Assembly: GCA_947585885.1 (NCBI GenBank) | Contig: CANPXI010000001.1 | Location: forward strand, 1-34,265 | Direction: 5' to 3' | DNA from: an uncultured Bacilli bacterium | GTDB lineage: Bacteria > Bacillota_I > Bacilli_A > RF39 > UBA660 | DNA length: 34,265 nt | In this document: piece after piece, positions 327 to 23,973 of the stretch | Position numbering within the stretch: the first letter of the stretch is position 1 | Layout: each line of letters opens with the position of its first letter | Position numbers and translations under genes: made by a program | Notes under the pieces: generated by a model | Told to the model about the DNA's origin: nothing | The model's input: the letters and a program-made list of their open reading frames with translations, nothing else | Database searches by the model: none

Positions 327-356
327 AAAAAAAAGAACCTACATAGTGTAAGTTCT
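327..356 (-). terminator. Rho-independent terminator of the SleB-like hydrolase gene
   Basis: On the - strand: AGAACUUACA-CUA-UGUAGGUUCU (10-bp stem with one G-U pair, 3-nt loop; + strand 334-343/347-356) followed by U8 (+ strand A8 at 327-334). The stem overlaps the TAG stop at 355-357. Confidence 0.75.
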
Positions 357-1248
357 ACTTTAATGTTAAACCATAATCATCTTCAATTTCTAACATATTT
401 TGATAATAGCTTCTCTCTTCTAAAGGAATAATATCTTCTTCATCTAAAACAGAGAAATAATTATTACCTCTACTAGAAAACTTAACTCTACCTGGTTTTT
501 CACAACCATTAGCCCTAAAAGATAAGAAGTTATGATAACTTTCTTCATTATAAACATCTTCTTTAGCTTTATCTGTTTCAGTTACTGTATCATAAAAATA
601 ATTAAGTACAGCTTCATATCTATCTCCTTCAGTAATTCCTAAAAATAATTTATATCTTCCATCAGAAATAACTGAAAATTGACTAGGTGCAGTAAAAATA
701 TCATAAATTGTAACATCATCTTTATTAATACCAAATGCATTAGCTGTAGATTGAACCCAAACTTTACTTATAGATCTATTAAATACAGTACAAGCAACTG
801 CAACAGTATCTTCTATACTATCCTCTTGAGCTTCAGCAAAAATTCCACCAAATACTTTATCAAGTTCTTCATCAGTAACATCAAAAACTCCACACAAAAA
901 CTCTCTCTTTTCTTCTAAAGTTAACTCATGGGGTTCTTCTTCTATAGCTTTACTTTCGTTAATAGAAGAAAAATCATATTTTTTTAAGCCATCAAAATTA
1001 TAATCATTCATTAAATTACTACTAATAGAATGATTTTCTAAACTATAACTTACTAATTTATCATGAGCAATAACTAATTCTTGAGAACTACTATTTTTTT
1101 CTTCATTTGTAGCATTAGTTTTCTTAGGTGAACCTAACATATTAAAAGCAATCAGTACAGCTAAAGCACTAACACCAACATTCTTTAAAATAACCTTTTC
1201 ACGTAAAGTTTTTAAATTATTAATTAATTCAGAATATTTATTAGTCAT
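355..1248 (-). CDS. Membrane-anchored cell-wall hydrolase, SleB/CwlJ-like (Hydrolase_2) C-terminal domain
   Basis: The track ORF is 355..1305, but the second Met (MTNKYSELINNL...) has a strong SD (AAAGGGGG, 9 nt upstream), and the 1249-1305 extension overlaps the consensus plsC promoter. It has one N-terminal TM (VGVSALAVLIAFNMLG). The C-terminal motifs FAEAQEDSIEDTVAVACTVFNR and APSQFSV match the SleB-type hydrolase core. Confidence 0.6.
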   Translation of the reverse strand: MTNKYSELINNLKTLREKVILKNVGVSALAVLIAFNMLGSPKKTNATNEEKNSSSQELVIAHDKLVSYSLENHSISSNLMNDYNFDGLKKYDFSSINESKAIEEEPHELTLEEKREFLCGVFDVTDEELDKVFGGIFAEAQEDSIEDTVAVACTVFNRSISKVWVQSTANAFGINKDDVTIYDIFTAPSQFSVISDGRYKLFLGITEGDRYEAVLNYFYDTVTETDKAKEDVYNEESYHNFLSFRANGCEKPGRVKFSSRGNNYFSVLDEEDIIPLEERSYYQNMLEIEDDYGLTLK

Positions 1249-1307
1249 AAAAAAAGTACCCCCTTTTTCTGCATTAATTGTACCATATAAATCACTATTT
1301 GTCAACC

Positions 1308-1354: not shown

Positions 1355-1933
1355 ATGAAAAAATATATATTATATAGAATTGCTAGACCTGTTATAAAGC
1401 TATTTATGACGTTTACTTATAAAGTTCAAATCATAGATAAAGAAAACATTCCTAAAAATGGTAGATGCATACTAGCAGGTAACCATACAAATAACTTTGA
1501 CCCATTACTTATAATGTCTAGTACAAAAAGAACAATAAGATTTTTAGCAAAAAAAGAGCTACATAAAGGAGTATTAAAACCCTTATTTATGAGTGCTGGT
1601 ACAATTCCAGTAGATAGGTCTATTAAAGATGAATCAGTAAAACTAAGAAGTATAGAAGCATTAAATAATGAAGAACTTCTTTGTATATTCCCTGAAGGCA
1701 CAATTAACAGAACAAAAGACACAATCATGCCTTTTAAATATGGAACAGTTTCATATGCATTAAAAACTTCTTCTCCTATTGTCCCTTTTATAATAACAGG
1801 TAAATATAAATTATTTAAAAAAAATATAAAAATTAAATTCCTAAAACCATATAAATTAGTAACAGATAACTTAGAACTAGAAAACAAAAAACTAATGAAT
1901 ATAATAAAAGAAGAACTGGAGGCTTCTATATGA
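1355..1933 (+). CDS. plsC: 1-acyl-sn-glycerol-3-phosphate acyltransferase family protein
   Basis: HxxxxD acyltransferase motif (NHTNNFD), FPEGT motif, and an N-terminal hydrophobic segment. Good SD. Confidence 0.8.
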   Translation: MKKYILYRIARPVIKLFMTFTYKVQIIDKENIPKNGRCILAGNHTNNFDPLLIMSSTKRTIRFLAKKELHKGVLKPLFMSAGTIPVDRSIKDESVKLRSIEALNNEELLCIFPEGTINRTKDTIMPFKYGTVSYALKTSSPIVPFIITGKYKLFKKNIKIKFLKPYKLVTDNLELENKKLMNIIKEELEASI

Positions 1934-2517
1934 CAAACTTTTTCTATAAATTTTTTAAATTAATACTAAAGCCAATTTATATTTTATACTATAACCCTAA
2001 AATATATAACAAAGAGAATTTAAGTGTTGAAGGTAGTGTAGTAATCGCAGGAAACCATATACACTTAATGGATCAATGTAACACTATAATTTCAACAAAA
2101 AGAATAATACACTATATGGCTAAAAGAGAATACTTTGATAGTGCTAAAACAAGATGGTTCTTTAAAATAACTGGGTGTATCCCTGTAGATAGATCAAAAA
2201 AAGATGATAATGCAGTATCTGCTGCCCTTGACGTCCTAAATAAAGGCGGAGCTATTGGAATATTTCCAGAAGGAACAAGAAATAAAACAAAAGAGAAACT
2301 TCTCCCATTTAAATTTGGTGCTGTATCACTTGCAGAAAAAACTGAATCATATATAATCCCAGTTGCAGTAACAGGAACCTATAAATTTAGAAGTAAAAAC
2401 TTAAAAATAAAATTTGGTAAACCATTTAAAATAGAAAACATGACCCTAGAAGAAGCAAACAACAAACTGTATAACGAAATAAGTCAAATGATTGATGAAT
2501 TAAAACAAATTGCATAG
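1930..2517 (+). CDS. 1-acyl-sn-glycerol-3-phosphate acyltransferase family protein (tandem paralog)
   Basis: NHIHLMD and FPEGTRN motifs. ATGA start/stop overlap with the upstream gene, and GGAGG 8 nt upstream. Confidence 0.8.
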   Translation: MTNFFYKFFKLILKPIYILYYNPKIYNKENLSVEGSVVIAGNHIHLMDQCNTIISTKRIIHYMAKREYFDSAKTRWFFKITGCIPVDRSKKDDNAVSAALDVLNKGGAIGIFPEGTRNKTKEKLLPFKFGAVSLAEKTESYIIPVAVTGTYKFRSKNLKIKFGKPFKIENMTLEEANNKLYNEISQMIDELKQIA

Positions 2518-2620: not shown

Positions 2621-4867
2621 ATGAAAAAACTAAGCGTTATTATATTTACTTTCATATTAAGTTTAACTTGCATAAAAAGTATAAACGCATTAGCTGGTTA
2701 TACTAGAGAAGACGACATACTAGTTAGAACTGGACCAGGTACTGGATACCAATATGTTGACGAATTACCAGGAAACTATGTTTTAGATTTAGTTGATTCT
2801 ACTCTTTATAATGTAGGTGACTCTTCTTGTTCAGTAGGTTGGTATAAAATAAATTTTAAAGGAAGTGTTAGATACATTTGTGGTATCTATGTTTCAATTG
2901 GTACACCACCATCAAATACACCAAGTTATAACACAGACACATATGATGCAAGAATATATGGAACTTCTATACAAGTAAGATCAGGAGCAACAAGTAGTTC
3001 AACTCTAAAAACATATCTAATGCCAGGAGCAGACATAGTAATAACTGGTAAAAAAGTATCAGGTTCAGGATGCTCTGACGGATGGTACCCAATAACATAT
3101 TATAAAAAAGAAACAGGTTATGTTTGTTCAACTTATGTAAGAACAAAAAGTGAAATAACTGCAAGTAACCCTGAATATGAAAAAGTATTAAAAGATAAAG
3201 GTTTTCCTGACTCATACATTCCATACTTAGTAAAACTTCACGAAATGCACCCAGCATGGGAATTCACACCAATAAATACTAACCTTAGTTGGAATAACGT
3301 AGTAAGTGGAGAATCAACAAAAAACTATCTTAATAGTTTATATGTTAACAGTACAACAAAATCTATATATACAAAATATTTATCAAATGAATCTGGGTGG
3401 TATGTAGCAACTGATGCAGTAAATGCTTTCTACTTAGACCCAAGAAATTTCTTAACAGAAAAATTTGTATTTATGTTTGAAAAATTAAATTATGACTATG
3501 GAACTGACTCAAAAAAAGAATATAGTAAAGACTATACAACTGCAAAAAAATACTATAGTGACTTAAAAAAGATTTTTGCAGGTACTTACTTAGATGATGA
3601 TAAATATATAGACACATTTATAAAAGCAGGTTTTACTTATAATGTAAGCCCAGACCACCTAGCAAGCCGTGCTATACAAGAAGGAATGGGTAGAACTACT
3701 AATGAATCAATAACAGGTACATTTAATAAAAAATATAAGAGTTATAGCTTAGTTGGTTACTATAACTACTATAATATACATGCATACTATAGTGATGGAT
3801 ATGACCCAACTACTAATGGACTAGCTTATGCCTGTGGGGCAAACTGTGGAGGCTCTAACACATACTTAAGACCATGGAACACAAGAGAAAAAGCTATCGT
3901 TGGTGGAGCTTACTGGATTGCAGACGGTTACATAGATGTTGGACAACACACATTATATTTCCAAAAATTTAACACAAGTCCATTATATGATAATGGTAAA
4001 TCATCATACACTCACCAATATCAAACTAACGTCCAAGCTCCAGTTACTGAAGGTGTATCAGTATTTGAAGCCTATAGAGATAATAAACAATTAGATCAAA
4101 GAATAGAATTTGATATACCTATATATAAAAATATGCCAGACGTTGTAAGTCTACCTAAAATTGCAAACACAGTTAACACACTAAAAGATATAAAAATAAA
4201 TGGAACTTCTCTATATAACTTTGATACAGACGTTCTTGAATACACAACATATGTAAGTAAAGAAACAACAAAAGTAAAAATTGAAGTAACAAAATCTGAC
4301 TCTCTAAGCACAGTAGAAGGTGACGGAGAAGTAACACTTTCTAGCGATACAACAACAAGACAAATAATAGTAACTGCAGAAAATGGAAGTAAAAGAACAT
4401 ATAAAATAACTATTAAAAGAGTAACAGATAATATAACAATAGATGAAATAATCGCAAACTTATCAACTAAACAAACAAATGGAATAATGTATAACATAAG
4501 TCCAGATACTTCATCATCTTCTCTAATAAACACAATACTAAAATTTGCTTCAAATGCAACAGTAACAATAACAAATAAAGATGGTAAAACACTAGGCGCA
4601 AACGAAACATTAAAAACAAATCAAACCTTAACAATAACTGTACCAAGTGGAGAATCAAGAAGTTATAAACTTGCTGTAACAGGAGATACAAATGAAGATG
4701 GAAAAGTAGATATAGTAGACTTATTAAGAGTCCAAAAACATATACTAAAAACAACAACTTTAACAGATGCAACTAATAAGGCTGCAGACACTAACTTTGA
4801 TGGAAAAGTAGATATAGTAGACTTATTAAGAGTCCAAAAATATATATTAAAAGTAGTAAAATTCTAA
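2621..4867 (+). CDS. Secreted peptidoglycan hydrolase: signal peptide, 2x SH3b-like, GH73-like N-acetylglucosaminidase region, cadherin-like beta-sandwich, C-terminal duplicated dockerin
   Basis: Signal peptide MKKLSVIIFTFILSLTCIKSINALA. SH3b-like repeats (SVGWYKINFKGSVRYICGIYV; SDGWYPITYYKKETGYVCSTYV). Glucosaminidase-type region (FPDSYIPYLVKLHEMHPAWEF ... ASRAIQEGMG). Cadherin-like module (LKDIKINGTSLYNFDTDVLEYTTYV...TYKITIKR). The C-terminus carries DTNEDGKVDIVDLLRVQKHILK and DTNFDGKVDIVDLLRVQKYILK, i.e. two DxNxDGxxDxxD Ca-loop plus helix segments. Confidence 0.75.
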   Translation: MKKLSVIIFTFILSLTCIKSINALAGYTREDDILVRTGPGTGYQYVDELPGNYVLDLVDSTLYNVGDSSCSVGWYKINFKGSVRYICGIYVSIGTPPSNTPSYNTDTYDARIYGTSIQVRSGATSSSTLKTYLMPGADIVITGKKVSGSGCSDGWYPITYYKKETGYVCSTYVRTKSEITASNPEYEKVLKDKGFPDSYIPYLVKLHEMHPAWEFTPINTNLSWNNVVSGESTKNYLNSLYVNSTTKSIYTKYLSNESGWYVATDAVNAFYLDPRNFLTEKFVFMFEKLNYDYGTDSKKEYSKDYTTAKKYYSDLKKIFAGTYLDDDKYIDTFIKAGFTYNVSPDHLASRAIQEGMGRTTNESITGTFNKKYKSYSLVGYYNYYNIHAYYSDGYDPTTNGLAYACGANCGGSNTYLRPWNTREKAIVGGAYWIADGYIDVGQHTLYFQKFNTSPLYDNGKSSYTHQYQTNVQAPVTEGVSVFEAYRDNKQLDQRIEFDIPIYKNMPDVVSLPKIANTVNTLKDIKINGTSLYNFDTDVLEYTTYVSKETTKVKIEVTKSDSLSTVEGDGEVTLSSDTTTRQIIVTAENGSKRTYKITIKRVTDNITIDEIIANLSTKQTNGIMYNISPDTSSSSLINTILKFASNATVTITNKDGKTLGANETLKTNQTLTITVPSGESRSYKLAVTGDTNEDGKVDIVDLLRVQKHILKTTTLTDATNKAADTNFDGKVDIVDLLRVQKYILKVVKF
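4697..4840 (+). repeat. Pair of 42-nt perfect direct repeats (4697-4738 and 4799-4840, period 102 nt) encoding the two dockerin segments
   Basis: Both copies read gatggaaaagtagatatagtagacttattaagagtccaaaaa. The flanking codons differ. Confidence 0.9.
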
Positions 4868-4877
4868 GGAGGAAAAA

Positions 4878-6329
4878 ATGAAAAAGGGATTATTTAAAAC
4901 ATTAATATTTGTGTTCTCATTTATGTTAATAGGTTTATTTCCACTACATAAACTAGATGCTGCAAGTGGAACAATATCAGTAAGGTCTAACCGTTCACAA
5001 GCTGTTATTGGAAGCACTGTAACAGTAACAGTATCTATAAACTCTGGTAATAAATTAGGTAGCTGGGAATACACTATGAGTTATGACTCTAGTAAACTAA
5101 AATTACAAAGTGGAACAAACCCAGTAGTCGGTTATGGTAATGGTTCACAAACATCTGCTTCTTACACATACACTTTTAAAATAATCGCAAGTGGAACAAG
5201 TACTGTATCAGTAAAATCTTATAGAATAGTTGATTTTGATTCTGAATCTAACATGAGTGTATCAATAAGTGGTGCTAGTATAAAAGGTATTACTGAACAA
5301 GATTTAGAAGCAAGTTATAGTAAAAATAATAATTTATCAAGTTTAGGAGTAACAGGTTACACACTAACTCCAGCATTTAATAAAAACACAACTGAATACT
5401 CTGTTGATGTACCAAGTGATGTAGAAAAAGTAACACTAACAGCAAAAACAGAAGACAGCACTGCATCAGTAACTGGTCTAGGAGAAAAAACAGTAAGTGA
5501 AGGAGAAAACAAATTTGAAATCACAGTAACTGCAGAAAATGGAAGCACTAAAAAATACACAGTAAAAGTTAATGTAAAAGATAAAAACCCTATAGAAGTA
5601 ACAGTGGATGGAAAATCATACACAGTAGTAAAACGTGCAAGTACTCTAACTGCACCTGCTACATATGAAGAAAAAACAATAAATATAAATGGTATAGAAG
5701 TACCAGGTTTTGTAAGTTCAATAACTAAATTTACTTTAGTAGGACTAAAAAGTACTGATGGAGAAACTGCACTATATAAGTATGACGCAAAAACTAATGA
5801 ATACACTTTATATAAAGAACTAAAAACAAATGGAATAACATTATTTCCAGTAACACCAAAAGAAATTCCAGAAAACTATGAAAAAGTACAAATAAAATTT
5901 AATGGTGAAGAAATAGACGCATATAAATATAAAAATACCAAAGACTTTTACTTGATATATGGAATAGACATTGAAACAGGAGACGAAACATTCTTTGAAT
6001 ATGATAAAATAAATAATACACTAAGTAGATATAACGATCAAATATTAAAAGAATTAATGACACAAAACGAAAACTATAAACTAATTATAATAGTTTTAGG
6101 TGTTGAAACAATACTATTACTTTTAGTAGTACTTATAACACTTACAAAGAAAAACAAAAGAAAGAAAAGAAAAAATGATTTAAATCATCTATTTGAAGAA
6201 GACACACCTAAAGAAGAAAAAAAGAAAGAAGAACCAAAACAAGAAAAAGAAAAAATTAAAAAAGAAGAGAAAGAAATTAAAAATGAAGAAGAAAAAAATC
6301 AAAAATTAGAAGAAAAAGATAAAAAATAA
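4878..6329 (+). CDS. Membrane-anchored cohesin-like protein: signal peptide, short cohesin-like domain, cadherin-like beta-sandwich, unassigned beta-rich region, C-terminal TM, Lys/Glu-rich cytoplasmic tail
   Basis: SD AAGGAGG. The N-terminal domain ISVRSNRSQAVIGSTVTVTVSINSGNKLGSWEYTMSYDSSKLKL follows the cohesin pattern (G.TV.V.V......G......F/Y..SYD...L). The cadherin-like module is NNNLSSLGVTGYTLTPAFNKNTTEYSVDV...KKYTVKVNV. The TM is LIIIVLGVETILLLLVVLITL, followed by a KKNKRKKRK...EEKDKK tail. Confidence 0.55.
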   Translation: MKKGLFKTLIFVFSFMLIGLFPLHKLDAASGTISVRSNRSQAVIGSTVTVTVSINSGNKLGSWEYTMSYDSSKLKLQSGTNPVVGYGNGSQTSASYTYTFKIIASGTSTVSVKSYRIVDFDSESNMSVSISGASIKGITEQDLEASYSKNNNLSSLGVTGYTLTPAFNKNTTEYSVDVPSDVEKVTLTAKTEDSTASVTGLGEKTVSEGENKFEITVTAENGSTKKYTVKVNVKDKNPIEVTVDGKSYTVVKRASTLTAPATYEEKTININGIEVPGFVSSITKFTLVGLKSTDGETALYKYDAKTNEYTLYKELKTNGITLFPVTPKEIPENYEKVQIKFNGEEIDAYKYKNTKDFYLIYGIDIETGDETFFEYDKINNTLSRYNDQILKELMTQNENYKLIIIVLGVETILLLLVVLITLTKKNKRKKRKNDLNHLFEEDTPKEEKKKEEPKQEKEKIKKEEKEIKNEEEKNQKLEEKDKK

Positions 6330-6339
6330 AAAGTATATG

Positions 6340-6348
6340 TGATATAAT
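6340..6348 (+). promoter_or_regulatory. Extended -10 element (TGaTATAAT) upstream of the LCP gene
   Basis: TG at 6340-6341 and TATAAT at 6343-6348. The SD GAAGGAG is just before the ATG at 6368. Confidence 0.4.
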
Positions 6349-6367
6349 GTGAAAGAAGGAGAAAAAA

Positions 6368-8368
6368 ATGGGTAAATATAAATTATTAAAAATCATAGGT
6401 GGAATACTTATTATATTATCAATTCTTTCAGTAGGAACTTCTATTTATAGCATATACTTACTAAAAGGAATAGAAACTTTTTATAGAATAATGTTTTCTA
6501 TATTTATGGTATTATTACTAATATTACTATTATATACTCTCATAGATAGCATTAAATTTAACAAAAAGAAAAAATTCATAATAACAGGAATATTAACATT
6601 CTTGCTTACTATTATATCTGTAGCAATAGCCGTAGTAATATTTGTAGTATATTCTAAACTAGATAACATGACAGCAAGTACCAAAGAAAAATACAAAACA
6701 GTACTTATAAGTTTAGAAGAACAAAAAGATATAAAAGACTTAAAAGATTTAACAATAGGTATAGTAAATAATGAAGAAGATATAGAAGGATATATTCTCC
6801 CAGGAGAAGTAATAAGTAAATATAAATTAAAATCTACTAATAAAATAAAAGAATATGATGATACATTAACACTAATGCAAGCATTACTTAATAAAGAAGT
6901 AGATGCAATATTTATTGGTCATAATTATGAAGGAAGATTCTTAAATTTAGAAAATTTTGATCAAAAAACTAAATTTTATGAAATATATGATTATGAAAAA
7001 GAATACGAAAAAGAGGAAGAAGAGGAAGACACTGAAGTTACAAAAATAACTGATCCATTCACAATATTACTTCTAGGTGTCGACTCAGAAGAAGACGAAC
7101 TTAAAAGTACAGCATCTTTTAATGGTGACACAATAATGTTAGTTGCAGTTGACCCTGAAACTCTTCATGCTACTATGTTTAGTATACCAAGAGATACTTA
7201 TGTACCAATGGCTTGTGGTGGAGGAACAACAAAAATAACACATGCAGCCTGGGGTGGAACTAACTGTGTAGTAAAAACAGTAGAAAACTTAACTGGCATA
7301 AAAATAAATTACTATATGAAAATTAACTTTAGAGGTGTAGTAGATTTAGTTGATAAACTAGGTGGAATAACAGTTGATGTACCAGTTCAGTTCTGTGAAT
7401 CAAATTCACACAGATGGACAGGAAAAGAATGGCAAATATGCTTAAATCCTGGAGTACAAACTCTAAATGGAGAACAAGCCTTGGCTTTATCTAGACATAG
7501 AAAAACACTACCTCTAGGTGACTTCCAAAGAGGCCAAAATCAACAATTAGTTGTTGAAGCAATGCTAAATAAATTAAAAACTTTAAGAAGCGTAGATGAC
7601 TTCTATGCTGTTCTAAATACAATAAGTAAAAACATAGAAACTAATATGAGTGTTGATAAAATGTTATCCTTCTATAATGTTGGTAAATCAATATTAATGA
7701 AAGATGATGATGTACAACTTAATATAACAAAAACATTCTTAACAGGTTATGATTTATACGTATGGGAAGGATACATGGAACTATATACTTTCCAATATTA
7801 TAGACAAAGTCTTGCTGATATAGTTGATGCGATGAAAATTAATTTAAGACAAAAATCAGCGCCAATAATTAAGACATTCTCATTTAGTATAAATAAGAAA
7901 TATGAGAAAGAAATAGTAGGTCAAACTTATTATAGTGAAACAAGAGAAGAACTGATACCTTACTTTACTGCAAATTCTCTAGCATGGGCACAAAGCTGGG
8001 CAGCAGCAAGAGGATTCACAATAACAGTAAAAGAACAAGAAAGTAGTGATCCACAGTATTCTGATGGACAAATAATTGCTCAAAGTGTTCATGGTCATGT
8101 ATTAGTATCAAAAGCTTCAAAGAATATAACACTTACTGTAATAAAAAAGGTAGAAGCTCCTACTGATCCTAGTGAAGAAGATCCAACAGATCCAGGTGAA
8201 GTAACACCACCAGAAGAAGAAGTACCAGGTGGACCAACTACTGGAGGAAGTTCTGGTGAAGAATCAGGCGGAGAATCTAGCGGAGAAACTGGGGACACAG
8301 GAAATACAGGTGGCTCTGAAGGTTCAACTGGAGGAAGTACAGATACTCCTGACCCAGGTGGAGAATGA
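6368..8368 (+). CDS. LytR-CpsA-Psr (LCP) family glycopolymer-peptidoglycan ligase with extra N-terminal TMs, an inserted extracellular domain, a PASTA-like domain and an acidic Gly/Ser/Thr/Pro/Glu tail
   Basis: Three N-terminal TMs. LCP core motifs are ILLLGVDS, GDTIMLVAVDPE, FSIPRDTYV, INYYMKINFRGVVDLVDKLGGITVDV and ALALSRHRK. The PASTA-like segment is FTANSLAWAQSWAAARGFTITVKEQ...DGQIIAQSVHGHVLVSKASKNITLTV. The tail starts around 8155. Confidence 0.85.
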   Translation: MGKYKLLKIIGGILIILSILSVGTSIYSIYLLKGIETFYRIMFSIFMVLLLILLLYTLIDSIKFNKKKKFIITGILTFLLTIISVAIAVVIFVVYSKLDNMTASTKEKYKTVLISLEEQKDIKDLKDLTIGIVNNEEDIEGYILPGEVISKYKLKSTNKIKEYDDTLTLMQALLNKEVDAIFIGHNYEGRFLNLENFDQKTKFYEIYDYEKEYEKEEEEEDTEVTKITDPFTILLLGVDSEEDELKSTASFNGDTIMLVAVDPETLHATMFSIPRDTYVPMACGGGTTKITHAAWGGTNCVVKTVENLTGIKINYYMKINFRGVVDLVDKLGGITVDVPVQFCESNSHRWTGKEWQICLNPGVQTLNGEQALALSRHRKTLPLGDFQRGQNQQLVVEAMLNKLKTLRSVDDFYAVLNTISKNIETNMSVDKMLSFYNVGKSILMKDDDVQLNITKTFLTGYDLYVWEGYMELYTFQYYRQSLADIVDAMKINLRQKSAPIIKTFSFSINKKYEKEIVGQTYYSETREELIPYFTANSLAWAQSWAAARGFTITVKEQESSDPQYSDGQIIAQSVHGHVLVSKASKNITLTVIKKVEAPTDPSEEDPTDPGEVTPPEEEVPGGPTTGGSSGEESGGESSGETGDTGNTGGSEGSTGGSTDTPDPGGE

Positions 8369-8379
8369 AGCAATTAATA

Positions 8380-8405
8380 ATAACACCCTCGTGGTGTTAT
8401 TTTTC
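8380..8405 (+). terminator. Rho-independent terminator after the LCP gene
   Basis: ATAACACC (8380-8387), loop CTCGT, GGTGTTAT (8393-8400), then TTTT (8401-8404). Confidence 0.7.
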
Positions 8406-22107: not shown

Positions 22108-23973
22108 CTAATCAAGTTTCTGTTTAATTTCTTTAATCTCATCTTCTATATTTTTTACTTTTTCATTATAAACATATATTTTATCATTAATTCTAATTTC
22201 TACTTTATTCATAATTTTATTATAAATAGGTCTTATAAATTTATTAATAAATTTTCTTATAATATTAGTATCAAAATTCTTTTCTCTTTTTAAAATATAT
22301 AAAAGAGCATTTTTTGAATAAAAATTACTTTTTTCATTTAGTGATATTAATTTTTTAAAAAAGTTTTTTTCTATAATTTTATATTCATTTAAATTATAAC
22401 ATCTATCGTAATTAATTTGTCTTCTACCCTGTAACATTTCAAGTTCATCATTTGATGCATCATAATTTAAATTTTCTTTTAATTGTTTTTTTATTATATT
22501 TAAATGCGAACTATGAATTTTATTTTCATATTTATAATTAGTTAATGAATCATTAGTGCCATTTCTATAAATTAATAAAATATCTTTAATATTAGCAATT
22601 TTAAAATATTTAATACATCTACTCCATAATTCATAATCTTCTGTATAATAATTGGAATCATATCTTAAATTAAATTGATTTAACATGCTTTTTCTAAACA
22701 TTACAGAAGGATGAATAACTGGCGTTTTTATTAAAGTTAAAACTTTTAATATTTCACTGTTAGTTTCAACAAGTAAATCAAAATTATTTTTTCCATACAT
22801 TCGTGCACTTGTTCCACATAATCCTACATCTTTATTTTTTTCTAAAAATTTAACTTGCATTTCGATTCTTCTAGGAAATGAAATATCATCGTCATCCATT
22901 CTAGCAATATATACACCATTTGAATTATCAATAGCGACATTTAATGACTTAGCTAATCCTAATCTAGTTTTATTTTTAATAATTTTAATTCTATCGTCAT
23001 TATAACTTTTAATAATTTTTTCTATTTTATCTTGCTTATCTGATTTATCAATGACGATAACAAATTCAAGATTGTTATAAGTTTGAGATAAAATACTTTT
23101 TATAGATTCATCTAAAAATTCTGTTCTATCATATACAGTCAATGCTATAGAAACTAAAGGCAATTTATTATTAATAAAGTTATTTTTTAATTTTTTTAAT
23201 CTAATTAAATTATTTTGATTCCATTCTGGAAATTGTTTCATGATTTCAAAATTATTCCAAAATTTCTTTTCTCCGTAAGCATGAACGATTCTAACGTCCT
23301 TATCGGGGGTAACATAAGGTGGCCAACAACAATATTTAATAATATCTATCTCTTCAACATCAATTTTAAAATTTTGAATAGCTAAATTAATAATTGCTTG
23401 ATCTAGCCATCTTAACTTTTCTGCGTAAAGATTAGTTGATTTAATACACCATTCAAACATTTCATCATAATTTTTTAACTTGTCTGAAAAAACCAGTATA
23501 CCAGTATTATAATTTCTTTTTAACATATCAAAATTTTCTATAAAAGTATTAAAATTAGCTTCAACCCTAGTATAATTATCTGAAGCAGTTGCAGCAAACC
23601 CAGTTTCATTAGCATAATCTAATAAACCTGAAATATCCCCTTGAATTAAAATATCAACATCATTCCAAATAACTTTTTTATACTTTTTTAATAATTCAAA
23701 ACACATAAATTTATATAAACAAGCGACAGAATATTTTTTTAAATTTTCTTTTGATAATCTCGTTACATCAAAAACATCATCAAATTTAATAAACTTAACT
23801 GGAGTAATATTATTTACTTCTTTTATTTCACATTCATTAATCTCATCGTAATATACAATAATATCATCCCAAAATTTTTTATTATGATTAACTAATCCAA
23901 TAAGAGTATTAATAAGTGCAAAAACATAGTCACTAGTAATACCAAAAACTAAAACAGTATCTTTCTTTTTCAT
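22108..23973 (-). CDS. Bifunctional glycosyltransferase: N-terminal GT8 (LgtC-like) plus C-terminal GT2, with a coiled-coil tail
   Basis: GT8 motifs: NDVDILIQGD (DxD), YNTGILVF, DQAIINL, HAYGEKKFW (H..G..KPW-like). GT2 motifs: LVSIALTVYDRTEFLDESIKSILSQTY and ARMDDDDISFPRRIEMQ. This is the only complete - strand gene inside the glycan locus. Confidence 0.8.
   Translation of the reverse strand: MKKKDTVLVFGITSDYVFALINTLIGLVNHNKKFWDDIIVYYDEINECEIKEVNNITPVKFIKFDDVFDVTRLSKENLKKYSVACLYKFMCFELLKKYKKVIWNDVDILIQGDISGLLDYANETGFAATASDNYTRVEANFNTFIENFDMLKRNYNTGILVFSDKLKNYDEMFEWCIKSTNLYAEKLRWLDQAIINLAIQNFKIDVEEIDIIKYCCWPPYVTPDKDVRIVHAYGEKKFWNNFEIMKQFPEWNQNNLIRLKKLKNNFINNKLPLVSIALTVYDRTEFLDESIKSILSQTYNNLEFVIVIDKSDKQDKIEKIIKSYNDDRIKIIKNKTRLGLAKSLNVAIDNSNGVYIARMDDDDISFPRRIEMQVKFLEKNKDVGLCGTSARMYGKNNFDLLVETNSEILKVLTLIKTPVIHPSVMFRKSMLNQFNLRYDSNYYTEDYELWSRCIKYFKIANIKDILLIYRNGTNDSLTNYKYENKIHSSHLNIIKKQLKENLNYDASNDELEMLQGRRQINYDRCYNLNEYKIIEKNFFKKLISLNEKSNFYSKNALLYILKREKNFDTNIIRKFINKFIRPIYNKIMNKVEIRINDKIYVYNEKVKNIEDEIKEIKQKLD

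Follow-up and report, generated by a model that had tools for sequence, protein, structure and literature searches.

In the non-cellulolytic Ruminococcus bicirculans, a lone dockerin and a lone cohesin tied to GH73 have been mentioned (Wegmann et al. 2014, as related by Ze et al. 2015, PMC4611034). As that account has it, the likeness to the gene pair described here is close: a gut Firmicute without a cellulosome, in which the sole cohesin-dockerin pair is associated with a GH73 wall hydrolase. The account is one sentence of a genome note and the comparison is made by that description only, against which the present family stands out by belonging to low-GC uncultured Bacilli, by extending over at least 523 species and by having a defined, transmembrane-anchored partner. 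Ruminococcal cellulosomes, too, have been reported to contain dockerin-bearing lysozymes and wall hydrolases (Moraïs et al. 2016; Bensoussan et al. 2017), and the 'lyticome' idea has been put forward (PMC6403190). The likeness lies in peptidoglycan hydrolases with dockerins that bind cohesins. The ruminococcal enzymes sit on multi-cohesin scaffoldins beside plant-fibre enzymes, whereas here a dedicated membrane protein with one cohesin has one adjoining client, with no fibre-degrading genes. The cohesins of Clostridium perfringens (2vo8, 2jh2, 2w1n, 2ozn) are the closest structural matches by TM-score to the cohesin of the present pair, and they too belong to a non-cellulosomal, Ca2+-dockerin-based system. 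In this species, cohesin and dockerin modules join secreted host-glycan enzymes into enzyme-enzyme complexes. In the present pair, by contrast, the cohesin is carried by a non-catalytic membrane protein and the putative client would act on peptidoglycan.

The GH73 glucosaminidase SagB of Staphylococcus aureus has its own N-terminal transmembrane anchor. It is positioned by a membrane partner, SpdC, an eight-transmembrane protein resembling a CAAX protease, so as to cleave glycan strands at a defined point (Schaefer et al., bioRxiv 10.1101/2020.05.21.109470). The hydrolase described here has instead a cleavable signal peptide and a predicted cohesin-dockerin tether to a single-pass protein, so that the comparison is a functional analogy only, the partners not being homologous. 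Anchoring scaffoldins of cellulosomes (SdbA and OlpA/OlpC of C. thermocellum, ruminococcal ScaE) also use a cohesin protein to fix a dockerin partner to the surface. SLH domains or sortase link them to the wall (PMC5817068; PMC13463774), whereas the anchor here is a C-terminal transmembrane helix with a cytoplasmic tail. The cohesins of OlpA and OlpC are among the fold matches of the partner cohesin (3ul4, 4dh2; Foldseek). A preliminary description of this DNA had presented the positioning of an autolysin in this way as not known to be characterised, which holds only in part, since the GH73 pair of R. bicirculans, the dockerin-bearing wall hydrolases and the 'lyticome' precede it.

The window, i.e. 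the whole stretch of 34,265 nucleotides that was analysed from an uncultured Bacilli bacterium, carries a conserved two-gene module. We propose, with a probability of about 0.68, that it encodes a one-to-one non-cellulosomal cohesin-dockerin pair which would keep a peptidoglycan hydrolase on the producing cell.

Gene layout and domains of the hydrolase

The features of the transcription unit are the following.

2512–2529, + strand: terminator-like hairpin that ends the upstream acyltransferase gene; 5' limit of the transcription unit
2585–2620, + strand: extended -10-like element TGATATAAT and GGAGG ribosome-binding site (RBS) before the hydrolase start codon, read from the sequence
2621–4867, + strand: gene of the secreted putative peptidoglycan hydrolase, 748 aa (signal peptide, two SH3b, GH73, cadherin-like module, Ig-like spacer, dockerin)
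2699–3139, + strand: two SH3b (SH3_3) wall-binding domains, ~aa 27–95 and 117–173 (Pfam SH3_3)
3188–4135, + strand: GH73 catalytic domain, predicted N-acetylglucosaminidase, ~aa 190–505 (family-profile match to GH73 structures)
4181–4420, + strand: cadherin-like beta-sandwich module of the hydrolase, aa 521–600 (Pfam PF12733, 34.2 bits)
4682–4852, + strand: type-I dockerin, aa 688–744, two 22-residue F-hand repeats (Pfam Dockerin_1)
4868–4877, + strand: 10-nt hydrolase-cohesin gene junction GGAGGAAAAA, where the RBS of the cohesin gene adjoins the hydrolase stop
4878–6329, + strand: single-pass (type I) membrane protein carrying the cohesin, 483 aa (ORF, hydropathy)
4962–5297, + strand: compact cohesin at the mature N-terminus of the partner, ~aa 29–140 (Pfam Cohesin, profile, AF2, Foldseek)
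5334–5573, + strand: cadherin-like beta-sandwich module of the partner, aa 153–232 (Pfam PF12733, 49 bits)
5577–6071, + strand: membrane-proximal beta-rich domain of the partner, aa 234–398 (AF2 pLDDT 90.9)
6081–6143, + strand: transmembrane helix of the partner, aa 402–422, including Glu410 (hydropathy peak 3.23)
6144–6326, + strand: cytoplasmic Lys/Glu-rich tail of the partner (composition, positive cluster after the helix)
6368–8368, + strand: LCP (LytR-CpsA-Psr) glycopolymer ligase gene (Pfam PF03816, 148.7 bits)
8379–8401, + strand: terminator-like hairpin behind the LCP gene; 3' limit of the transcription unit

Both open reading frames of the pair have the coordinates, strand and lengths given in the preliminary description. 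The latter had placed the second gene 11 nt downstream of the first; the adjacency stands, but the layout TAA-GGAGG-AAAAA-ATG leaves 10 nt from stop to ATG, and 11 results when counting starts at the stop codon's final base. A consensus promoter scan upstream of the hydrolase gave nothing above chance. No terminator was found in the gap between the partner and LCP genes (6329 to 6368), and the LCP gene is probably co-transcribed with the pair in this window, as judged from its sequence. The neighbours in the window are this gene and a teichoic-acid-type glycopolymer locus, and no cellulosome or plant-polysaccharide genes were found among them; the Pfam scan is thus in agreement with the LCP ligase, the wall-glycopolymer neighbourhood and the lack of carbohydrate-degrading genes noted before.

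The SH3b-like repeats proposed for the hydrolase were recovered by Pfam as two SH3_3 stretches (44.1 bits), and the family profile matched the SH3b NMR structures 2kq8, 2krs and 2kt8. No glucosaminidase was found by Pfam PF01832, either in the full-length protein or in the catalytic region scanned alone. Despite this blank, the GH73-like region of the preliminary description is confirmed by solved GH73 structures: S. aureus Atl (6fxo) was matched at E 4e-9 in a single-sequence search, and the family profile retrieved 6fxo (E 2.8e-17), 6u0o and 6fxp (~2e-14; PDB titles do not name the protein, which we take to be SagB), AtlE 4pi7 (1e-12) and also 5wqw. The catalytic Glu is E354 (nt 3680–3682, motif AIQEGMG); it is conserved in 54 of 54 cases, as is N470, with Y467 kept in 53 of the 54, and the Asp of the YATD-type motif is replaced in this family by an invariant Asn. 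The cadherin-like module had been seen in both proteins, and PF12733 is indeed matched by each, the two copies being 33% identical (E 7e-11).

At the C-terminus, the segments that had been read as a type-I dockerin give a Dockerin_1 match over aa 688–743 (55.3 bits, E 7.6e-15), with repeats at aa 689–710 (nt 4685–4750) and aa 723–744 (nt 4787–4852), and match the PDB dockerins 2ccl_B, 4fl4_A and 1ohz_B. The Ca2+ ligands are kept: nearly all relatives have Asp at loop positions 1, 5 and 12, and the residue at positions 3 and 9 is, with rare exceptions, N, S, D or T. At recognition positions 10 and 11 the repeats agree with each other in 97% and 93% of the proteins, compared with 55% and 66% after shuffling; the two repeats co-vary in their recognition residues, like dual-binding type-I dockerins. 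The dockerin is also the least diverged module of the hydrolase, with a mean p-distance of 0.46 against 0.56 for GH73.

Cohesin domain and topology of the membrane partner

When the 483-aa partner was scanned with Pfam at full length, only the cadherin-like module and no Cohesin was returned. Scanned alone, its N-terminal domain reaches 28.6 bits against a gathering score of 24.1 (E 1.8e-6), and the same domain taken alone matches Pfam Cohesin in 29 of 29 relatives, with a weak BatD match too in 21 of them. The profile of the domain family, when compared with the PDB, gave 19 matches of which 17 are cohesin or scaffoldin chains, and it also retrieves true scaffoldins with 7–9 Pfam cohesins. 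The AlphaFold (AF2) model has a pLDDT of 94.9, its top Foldseek matches are nearly all cohesins at a probability of 1.00, and its comparison with 2vo8 gives TM-scores of 0.81 (by query length) and 0.70 (relative to the target) at an rmsd of 2.6 Å. The domain is short, ~112 aa against ~135–170 in solved cohesins, and its sequence aligns well to cohesins in the first half only. The cohesin pattern of the preliminary description is borne out by the Pfam threshold, the PDB profile matches and the predicted fold, and by sequence, profile and modelled fold the N-terminal domain of the partner is a cohesin.

In the hydropathy profile, a signal sequence is seen at the N-terminus and a single strong transmembrane helix in the C-terminal part, followed by KKNKRKKRK. 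Since this positive cluster comes directly after the helix, the tail (62 aa, with 22 Lys and 16 Glu) is placed inside the cell, and hydropathy and composition agree with the signal peptide, single helix and Lys/Glu-rich cytoplasmic tail described earlier. Signal peptide, strong C-terminal helix and positive-inside cluster occur in 80 of 80 partners. The tail ranges from 10 to 134 aa among partners (median 58 aa) and is 61% charged. The membrane-proximal domain (aa 234–398) has no Pfam match and no PDB match (best Foldseek E 0.096), and is probably a stalk or interaction domain. The public annotation of the transmembrane-anchored partner does not name a cohesin.

Conservation of the pair among relatives

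In 80 of 80 loci, each from a different species, the cohesin gene has a dockerin-coding stretch immediately upstream, on its own strand. The GH73 region is present in 79 of them, the remaining locus being cut by a contig end, the intergenic gap, measurable in 78 loci, is 8–17 nt in 73 of these, and the LCP gene follows the pair directly in 31 of the 80. The hosts are uncultured gut Bacilli known from metagenome-assembled genomes (MAGs). The same pair occurs at ~32% identity in two distant relatives of 47% GC (L081 and L082), where the SH3b region can be missing while the dockerin and the partner gene stay; these two may be of the R. bicirculans type. The check by gene co-conservation that the preliminary description had suggested thus came out in favour of the pair. 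When module distances were compared with those of the cohesin, the dockerin had the highest partial correlation of the five modules (r = 0.38, reached by 0 of 500 permutations); the dockerin-cohesin mirror-tree signal is modest and the raw correlation of SH3b is similar. Column-by-column covariation between dockerin specificity class and cohesin columns is inseparable from phylogeny.

Possible functions of the pair

In the mechanism that we propose, the hydrolase would be secreted via Sec, with SH3b at its N-terminus, two beta-sandwich spacers and the dockerin at its C-terminus. Cleavage of the partner signal peptide would leave the cohesin at the N-terminal tip of a stalk made of the cadherin-like module and the beta-rich domain, below which come the transmembrane helix and a disordered charged tail. 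The dockerin would dock in the cohesin in a Ca2+-dependent manner, with two symmetric orientations probably open to it. The cohesin lies at the distal tip, separated from the helix by ~260 residues and two folded domains, so the enzyme would be held off the membrane surface on a stalk. The cohesin-dockerin tether of the preliminary description is supported, but not the position at the outer membrane face that it had assigned to it.

The same tether could serve another purpose, namely a surface-displayed lytic weapon or scavenger of 'lyticome' type, digesting the peptidoglycan of neighbours for competition or wall sugars. Dockerin-bearing lysozymes are described as active in the R. champanellensis cellulosome in the source that takes up the lyticome (PMC6403190), the hosts of the present pair live in dense gut communities, and a long stalk with the cohesin at its tip would suit outward display. 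We nevertheless consider this use unlikely, as at least 523 species genomes carry the pair, there is no evident immunity gene, no examined locus holds a second cohesin or dockerin, and the chromosomal position by LCP and wall-glycopolymer genes is conserved, with probable co-transcription with LCP; such a broad, conserved wall-gene setting is more in keeping with housekeeping wall genes than with accessory weapons. The present data do not separate remodelling of the own wall from attack on other bacteria. A phage endolysin or prophage remnant, lying next to a cohesin gene by accident, is hardly credible: eight 'Bacteriophage sp.' GenBank records do match the hydrolase, but they are 8 out of 50,697 phage records, all unverified, unannotated faecal contigs with at most 39% identity, and the one examined in depth has, besides the same cohesin partner, a chromosomal gene that is ClpC-like. 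The Sec signal peptide and the conserved chromosomal context of the hydrolase also speak against this origin.

It is likewise conceivable that both proteins act in one pathway and do not bind each other, the dockerin binding another cohesin of the genome, a wall polymer or Ca2+ only, and the cohesin fold another ligand. The uninformative dockerin-cohesin covariation would allow it, as would the resemblance of cohesin-like beta-sandwiches to Ig-like or BatD-like domains (hence the weak BatD matches) and the scope of the cohesin/dockerin search, which covered the loci of the pair. In ~1 Mb of those loci, however, no second cohesin or dockerin was found near the pair, and the strict adjacency with its conserved 8–17-nt junction, the retention of dockerin and partner where SH3b is lost, and the low divergence of a dockerin whose repeats change their recognition positions together make the absence of mutual binding distinctly unlikely. 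We regard as slightly less probable again that the partner acts chiefly as a regulator and not as a passive anchor, keeping the hydrolase inactive or freeing it on a signal, for instance from the division machinery, which might be sensed via the membrane-proximal domain, the Glu of the helix or the charged tail. Membrane partners that control wall hydrolases are known, e.g. SagB-SpdC, the membrane-proximal domain is conserved and confidently folded in the model without a PDB match, the charged tail is always present, and Glu410 is kept in the closer half of the family (39 of 81 partners). On the other hand, this Glu is missing in about half of the partners, the tail is of low complexity, variable in length and lineage-dependent in charge (Lys/Glu-rich here, Asp-rich in L081), and no signalling domain was detected in the partner.

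We therefore favor a tether that would keep the hydrolase on its producer. Held by its C-terminus to a membrane-rooted stalk, the enzyme would engage the cell's own wall with its SH3b end and catalytic domain; the tether would stop it from diffusing off in the gut and limit the depth of wall cutting. It would also put the enzyme beside wall assembly, as suggested by the neighbouring LCP ligase and teichoic-acid-type locus, with glycan-strand trimming or daughter-cell separation as a likely role. If this is true, the cellulosome-type cohesin-dockerin glue serves in these bacteria to attach a cell-wall-cutting enzyme to its own producer.

The dockerin-bearing hydrolase

Both open reading frames of the preliminary description were recovered at exactly the same coordinates, and the features on which the analysis relies are the following.

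Features of the hydrolase-cohesin region (nucleotides in the window, or residues where aa is given)
2512-2529 and 8379-8401: terminator-like hairpins that bracket the hydrolase, cohesin and LCP (LytR-CpsA-Psr glycopolymer ligase) genes, with none between
2621-4867, + strand: hydrolase, secreted protein of 748 aa
hydrolase, two stretches: SH3_3 (Pfam)
hydrolase aa 521-600: cadherin-like module (Pfam)
hydrolase aa 689-710 and 723-744: two 22-residue F-hand dockerin repeats, DTNEDGKVDIVD and DTNFDGKVDIVD
4878-6329, + strand: partner, membrane protein of 483 aa
5577-6071 (partner aa 234-398): membrane-proximal domain of 165 aa, between the cadherin-like module and the transmembrane helix
partner aa 402-422: strong transmembrane helix, followed by KKNKRKKRK
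6368-8368: LCP gene

The SH3b-like repeats, the dockerin and the cadherin-like module proposed for the hydrolase from its sequence were all three found by Pfam, while the proposed GH73-like region was recovered by comparison with solved GH73 structures and not by the Pfam Glucosaminidase model (PF01832), which gave no match to the hydrolase at E <= 0.01, the isolated catalytic region included. A search of both proteins against NCBIfam also returned nothing useful. GH73 membership rests on sequence and profile matches to the PDB: the single sequence of the region matches S. aureus Atl (6fxo, E 4e-9), and a family profile built from 38 members matches 6fxo at 2.8e-17, 6u0o/6fxp and 5wqw at about 2e-14 and AtlE (4pi7) at 1e-12. 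E354 of the hydrolase aligns with the catalytic general-acid Glu of Atl (in LLETG) and is kept in 54/54 relatives. The Tyr of the YATD-type motif (Y467) is present in 53 of these 54, and its Asp position is occupied by an Asn (N470) in all of them, so that the motif reads YQTN in the hydrolase. GH73 N-acetylglucosaminidases cleave the GlcNAc-MurNAc bond of peptidoglycan, and the sequence comparisons support the 748-aa protein being a predicted peptidoglycan hydrolase of this family.

The dockerin is matched by Dockerin_1 (PF00404) over aa 688-743 with 55.3 bits for a cut-off of 22.9 (E 7.6e-15, HMM positions 2-57 of 57), and by the PDB dockerins 2ccl_B (8.5e-7) and 4fl4_A; no X-module was detected ahead of it in the hydrolase. 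The Ca2+ ligands of the F-hand loop are expected at positions 1, 3, 5, 9 and 12: positions 1, 5 and 12 are Asp in 50-54 among 54 relatives, and positions 3 and 9 nearly always carry oxygen donors (N/S/D/T). The recognition positions 10 and 11 are equal in both repeats in 97% and 93% of 70 proteins respectively, against 55% and 66% after shuffling, and repeat identity is 78% within one protein versus 64-66% across proteins. The duplicated residue pairs at these positions are IL/IL, AL/AL, IR/IR, IV/IV, PL/PL, SL/SL and NV/NV. In these sequences the two repeats vary jointly, as would be expected if a type-I dockerin with symmetric, dual binding tracked one partner surface. The dockerin is also the least diverged module of the hydrolase, with a mean p-distance of 0.46 versus 0.56 for the catalytic domain.

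The membrane-anchored partner

When the full-length partner was scanned with Pfam, only a cadherin-like module (aa 153-232) was reported and Cohesin was not. The N-terminal domain that had been described as cohesin-patterned nevertheless passes the threshold when taken alone, aa 27-140 matching Cohesin (PF00963) with 28.6 bits for a cut-off of 24.1 (E 1.8e-6, HMM positions 10-78 of 139), and its family profile and its fold both retrieve cohesins. PF00963 is matched by 29/29 family members tested (best E 5.7e-11), and a precomputed match exists in 8/120 partner homologues, among the matches listed. Against the PDB, 17 of the 19 matches of the cohesin-domain family profile are cohesin or scaffoldin chains, the best being ScaB (3l8q, E 6.9e-5). 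Against 1.84 billion representative proteins, the same profile retrieved 1,978 clusters at E <= 1e-3, including very long proteins with 5-10 repeated matching stretches; the two that were checked (P0261 and P0340) contain 7 and 9 strong Pfam cohesins, for a total of about 300 bits. The compact cohesin domain of the partner (about 112 aa) has a confident all-beta AlphaFold2 model (pLDDT 94.9, pTM 0.84). Foldseek returned 68 PDB matches at E <= 1e-3 for this model, the top 21 all being cohesins with a probability of 1.00 and query TM-scores of 0.60-0.81, and the best superposition was obtained with the non-cellulosomal C. perfringens cohesin 2vo8 (TM 0.81 for the query and 0.70 for the target, rmsd 2.6 Å). 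Four independent lines of sequence and model evidence settle the identity of this predicted domain as a cohesin. In public annotation the partner proteins are named 'hypothetical' or 'cadherin-like beta sandwich domain-containing protein', so that their cohesin goes unseen; these names may arise because hmmscan of the full-length protein misses Cohesin, whereas the isolated domain passes the gathering threshold.

The signal peptide, the single C-terminal transmembrane helix and the Lys/Glu-rich tail described earlier are all present in the partner. The tail comprises 62 aa, with 22 Lys and 16 Glu, and is placed in the cytoplasm by the positive-inside rule, so that the cohesin forms the distal end of the ectodomain and is separated from the membrane by about 260 residues. 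A C-terminal transmembrane helix followed by a charged tail occurs in 80/80 full-length partners. The model of the membrane-proximal domain has a pLDDT of 90.9, with 13 beta strands and one helix; Foldseek against the PDB gave nothing significant for it (best E 0.096, TM below 0.22) and no Pfam model matched it, and its predicted structure may represent either an elongated stalk or a fold not described before. Within the predicted transmembrane helix lies a Glu (Glu410, window 6105-6107), which is found in 39 of 81 partners, those of closer relatives, and is otherwise replaced by I, L or V; it may hint at an intramembrane contact.

As a separate observation on the partner ectodomain over 53 loci, the divergence of the cohesin (4962-5297) tracks that of the hydrolase modules with Spearman coefficients of 0.56-0.60, and that of the two remaining ectodomain modules of the partner (5334-6062) with coefficients of only 0.25-0.27.

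Conservation and genomic setting of the pair

Both proteins belong to large families, with 942 and 1,832 matches among the candidates scored, and partner relatives were found in at least 523 genomes when each GTDB species was represented by one genome. The adjacency of the two genes in relatives, proposed in the preliminary description as a check, was borne out: in 80/80 related loci from different species, gathered via the partner gene, a stretch that encodes a dockerin ends shortly before the cohesin gene, in the same orientation, and 79 of these loci also contain the GH73 region, the other being cut by a contig end. Nearly all of these loci come from uncultured gut metagenome-assembled genomes labelled Bacilli or 'Tenericutes', with Clostridium sp. 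CAG:524, Clostridium sp. CAG:628 and Candidatus Onthocola also among the hosts. The intergenic gap was measurable in 78 loci and spans 8-17 nt in 73 of them, and in the window the junction reads TAA-GGAGG-AAAAA-ATG. The close spacing of the genes, with the ribosome-binding site of the partner right after the stop codon of the hydrolase, suggests that the two proteins are made together. Neither a second dockerin nor a second cohesin was found in the window or in any of the 80 loci.

The pair also occurs in two distant records of 47% G+C, L081 (MT836697.1, 5935-9355) and L082 (MT839502.1, 638-4231), both labelled 'UNVERIFIED Bacteriophage sp.' in GenBank, as a GH73-dockerin protein (about 32% identity to the hydrolase) and a cohesin-TM protein; the N-terminal domain of one of the two partners reaches 96.9% hhalign probability with the cohesin profile. 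The module therefore extends beyond the low-GC lineage. The L081 hydrolase is without the SH3b region and retains the dockerin, and the tail of its partner is Asp-rich, not Lys/Glu-rich. L081 at least looks like a bacterial fragment, because a ClpC-like chromosomal gene adjoins the pair. A phage-endolysin origin of the hydrolase was considered and rejected, this record holding the chromosomal gene together with the same pair.

The window is AT-rich (20-30% G+C). As no hairpin lies between the two flanking ones, the hydrolase, cohesin and LCP genes may form one transcription unit there. An LCP gene is directly downstream of the pair in 31/80 loci and anywhere within the locus in 53/80. A scan for consensus promoters gave fewer sites (26) than shuffled sequence did (35) and is thus uninformative. 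An extended -10-like element (TGATATAAT) is seen just upstream of the LCP gene. The last ~65 aa of the LCP protein (PTDPSEEDPTDPGEV...GGSTDTPDPGGE; window ~8170-8365) are rich in Gly, Ser, Glu, Pro and Thr and probably form a disordered extension into the wall.

The neighbours were found as first described, namely an LCP ligase and a wall-glycopolymer locus, and no cellulosome or plant-fibre gene is present in the window. The remainder of the window carries a glycopolymer locus of the teichoic-acid type, with a TagO-like GT4, a GpsA-type glycerol-3-phosphate dehydrogenase, a CDP-alcohol phosphatidyltransferase, several GT2 glycosyltransferases, an ABC-2 exporter pair, a TagF-like glycerophosphotransferase, GtrII, an acyltransferase and an O-antigen-ligase-like protein, and the gene order is the same in a 73%-identical relative. 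The only large minus-strand gene of this locus (22108-23973) encodes GT8 and GT2 domains and coincides with a local GC-skew reversal. Upstream of the pair, the 316-aa protein encoded at 355-1305 (- strand) carries a hydrophobic segment at its N-terminus and matches SleB-like cell-wall hydrolases weakly (Hydrolase_2, E 0.02, below the Pfam threshold), and the tandem overlapping genes at 1355-1933 and 1930-2517 (+ strand) encode proteins of about 190 aa with an HxxxxD motif in each, whose orthologues in the 73%-identical relative are annotated PF01553 Acyltransferase (PlsC-type).

A proposed cohesin-dockerin tether for a putative autolysin

Our best reading of the sequences and models is that the hydrolase and its partner would form a one-to-one cohesin-dockerin tether, the physical binding itself being inferred. 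The hydrolase would be exported and its SH3b domains would bind peptidoglycan, while the C-terminal dockerin would hold it on the cohesin of a membrane-rooted stalk. Such a tether would prevent the enzyme from leaving the cell that makes it, restrict how far it reaches radially and set it beside wall assembly. The idea of the preliminary description, in which the cohesin protein holds the glucosaminidase through a cohesin-dockerin contact, is supported within the reach of sequence, fold and comparative genomics, although the enzyme would sit on a stalk and not at the membrane face.

Three other readings were weighed. In one of them the hydrolase and its partner would act without direct binding to each other, and the patterns of co-divergence bear on this point. 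Among five modules tested by mirror-tree, it was the dockerin whose partial correlation with the divergence of the cohesin was highest (0.38, reached by 0/500 permutations), the SH3b region being not far behind (0.29), which we take as weak additional support for a dockerin under selection to bind. Column covariation between the dockerin class (Ile10 / Ala10) and the cohesin columns was inseparable from phylogeny, high mutual information being spread equally across signal peptide, stalk and TM columns; as the Ala10 class is simply a clade, this test is uninformative. In another reading the role of the membrane protein would be regulatory and not anchoring, and in the last one the tether would serve as a weapon against neighbouring bacteria, as in the 'lyticome' idea (PMC6403190). 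A cohesin-dockerin tether that would keep the hydrolase on its own cell is the reading that we prefer.

Every part of the hydrolase-partner system is of a known kind. Non-cellulosomal cohesins and dockerins are widespread according to Peer 2009, as cited in PMC4300822, lysozymes that bear dockerins are described from a cellulosome (PMC6403190), and PMC4611034 gives a GH73 note for R. bicirculans with one dockerin and one cohesin. The arrangement differs from a cellulosome, in which a scaffoldin bears several cohesins for several enzymes, whereas here there is one cohesin per protein in the window and in the 80 loci. Dockerin enzymes of cellulosomes act on plant polysaccharides, whereas the sole dockerin protein of the window is a predicted peptidoglycan hydrolase with wall-biosynthesis genes as neighbours. 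Functionally, the nearest precedent is SagB-SpdC, where a membrane protein serves as scaffold for a GH73 enzyme so that it cuts nascent glycan strands (bioRxiv 10.1101/2020.05.21.109470). The partner proteins are unrelated and the likeness, drawn by analogy, is functional only: the SagB-SpdC partner is polytopic and CAAX-protease-like and its hydrolase is TM-anchored, whereas the partner described here is single-pass and its hydrolase bears only an N-terminal signal sequence. In the literature we found no description of a dedicated partner with one cohesin and a TM anchor whose gene directly follows that of its GH73 client (R. bicirculans being known from description only), of the strict conservation of such a pair across hundreds of species of an uncultured gut lineage, of its link with LCP and wall-polymer genes, or of the cohesin itself, which escapes public annotation.

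A more elaborate version of the tether, which we regard as rather unlikely, would make it a membrane-rooted 'ruler' for wall assembly that sets GH73 at a fixed distance from the membrane, where it would trim or release new glycan strands in step with glycopolymer attachment by LCP, the membrane-proximal domain and the TM helix coupling it to the synthesis or division machinery. If true, this would be a functional analogue of SagB-SpdC made from cellulosome parts.

The placement of autolysins is a central problem in Gram-positive wall biology, known to be solved by wall-binding repeats, by teichoic-acid gating and by membrane partners, FtsEX and SpdC among them. If our reading is true, a dedicated cohesin-dockerin plug carried by a membrane stalk would add another solution, in a pair kept by at least 523 species genomes from a gut lineage that has hardly been studied, with relatives in higher-GC bacteria. 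It would also provide protein-display engineering with a natural minimal one-to-one pair, and non-cellulosomal cohesin-dockerin pairs would gain a clear, testable physiological role.
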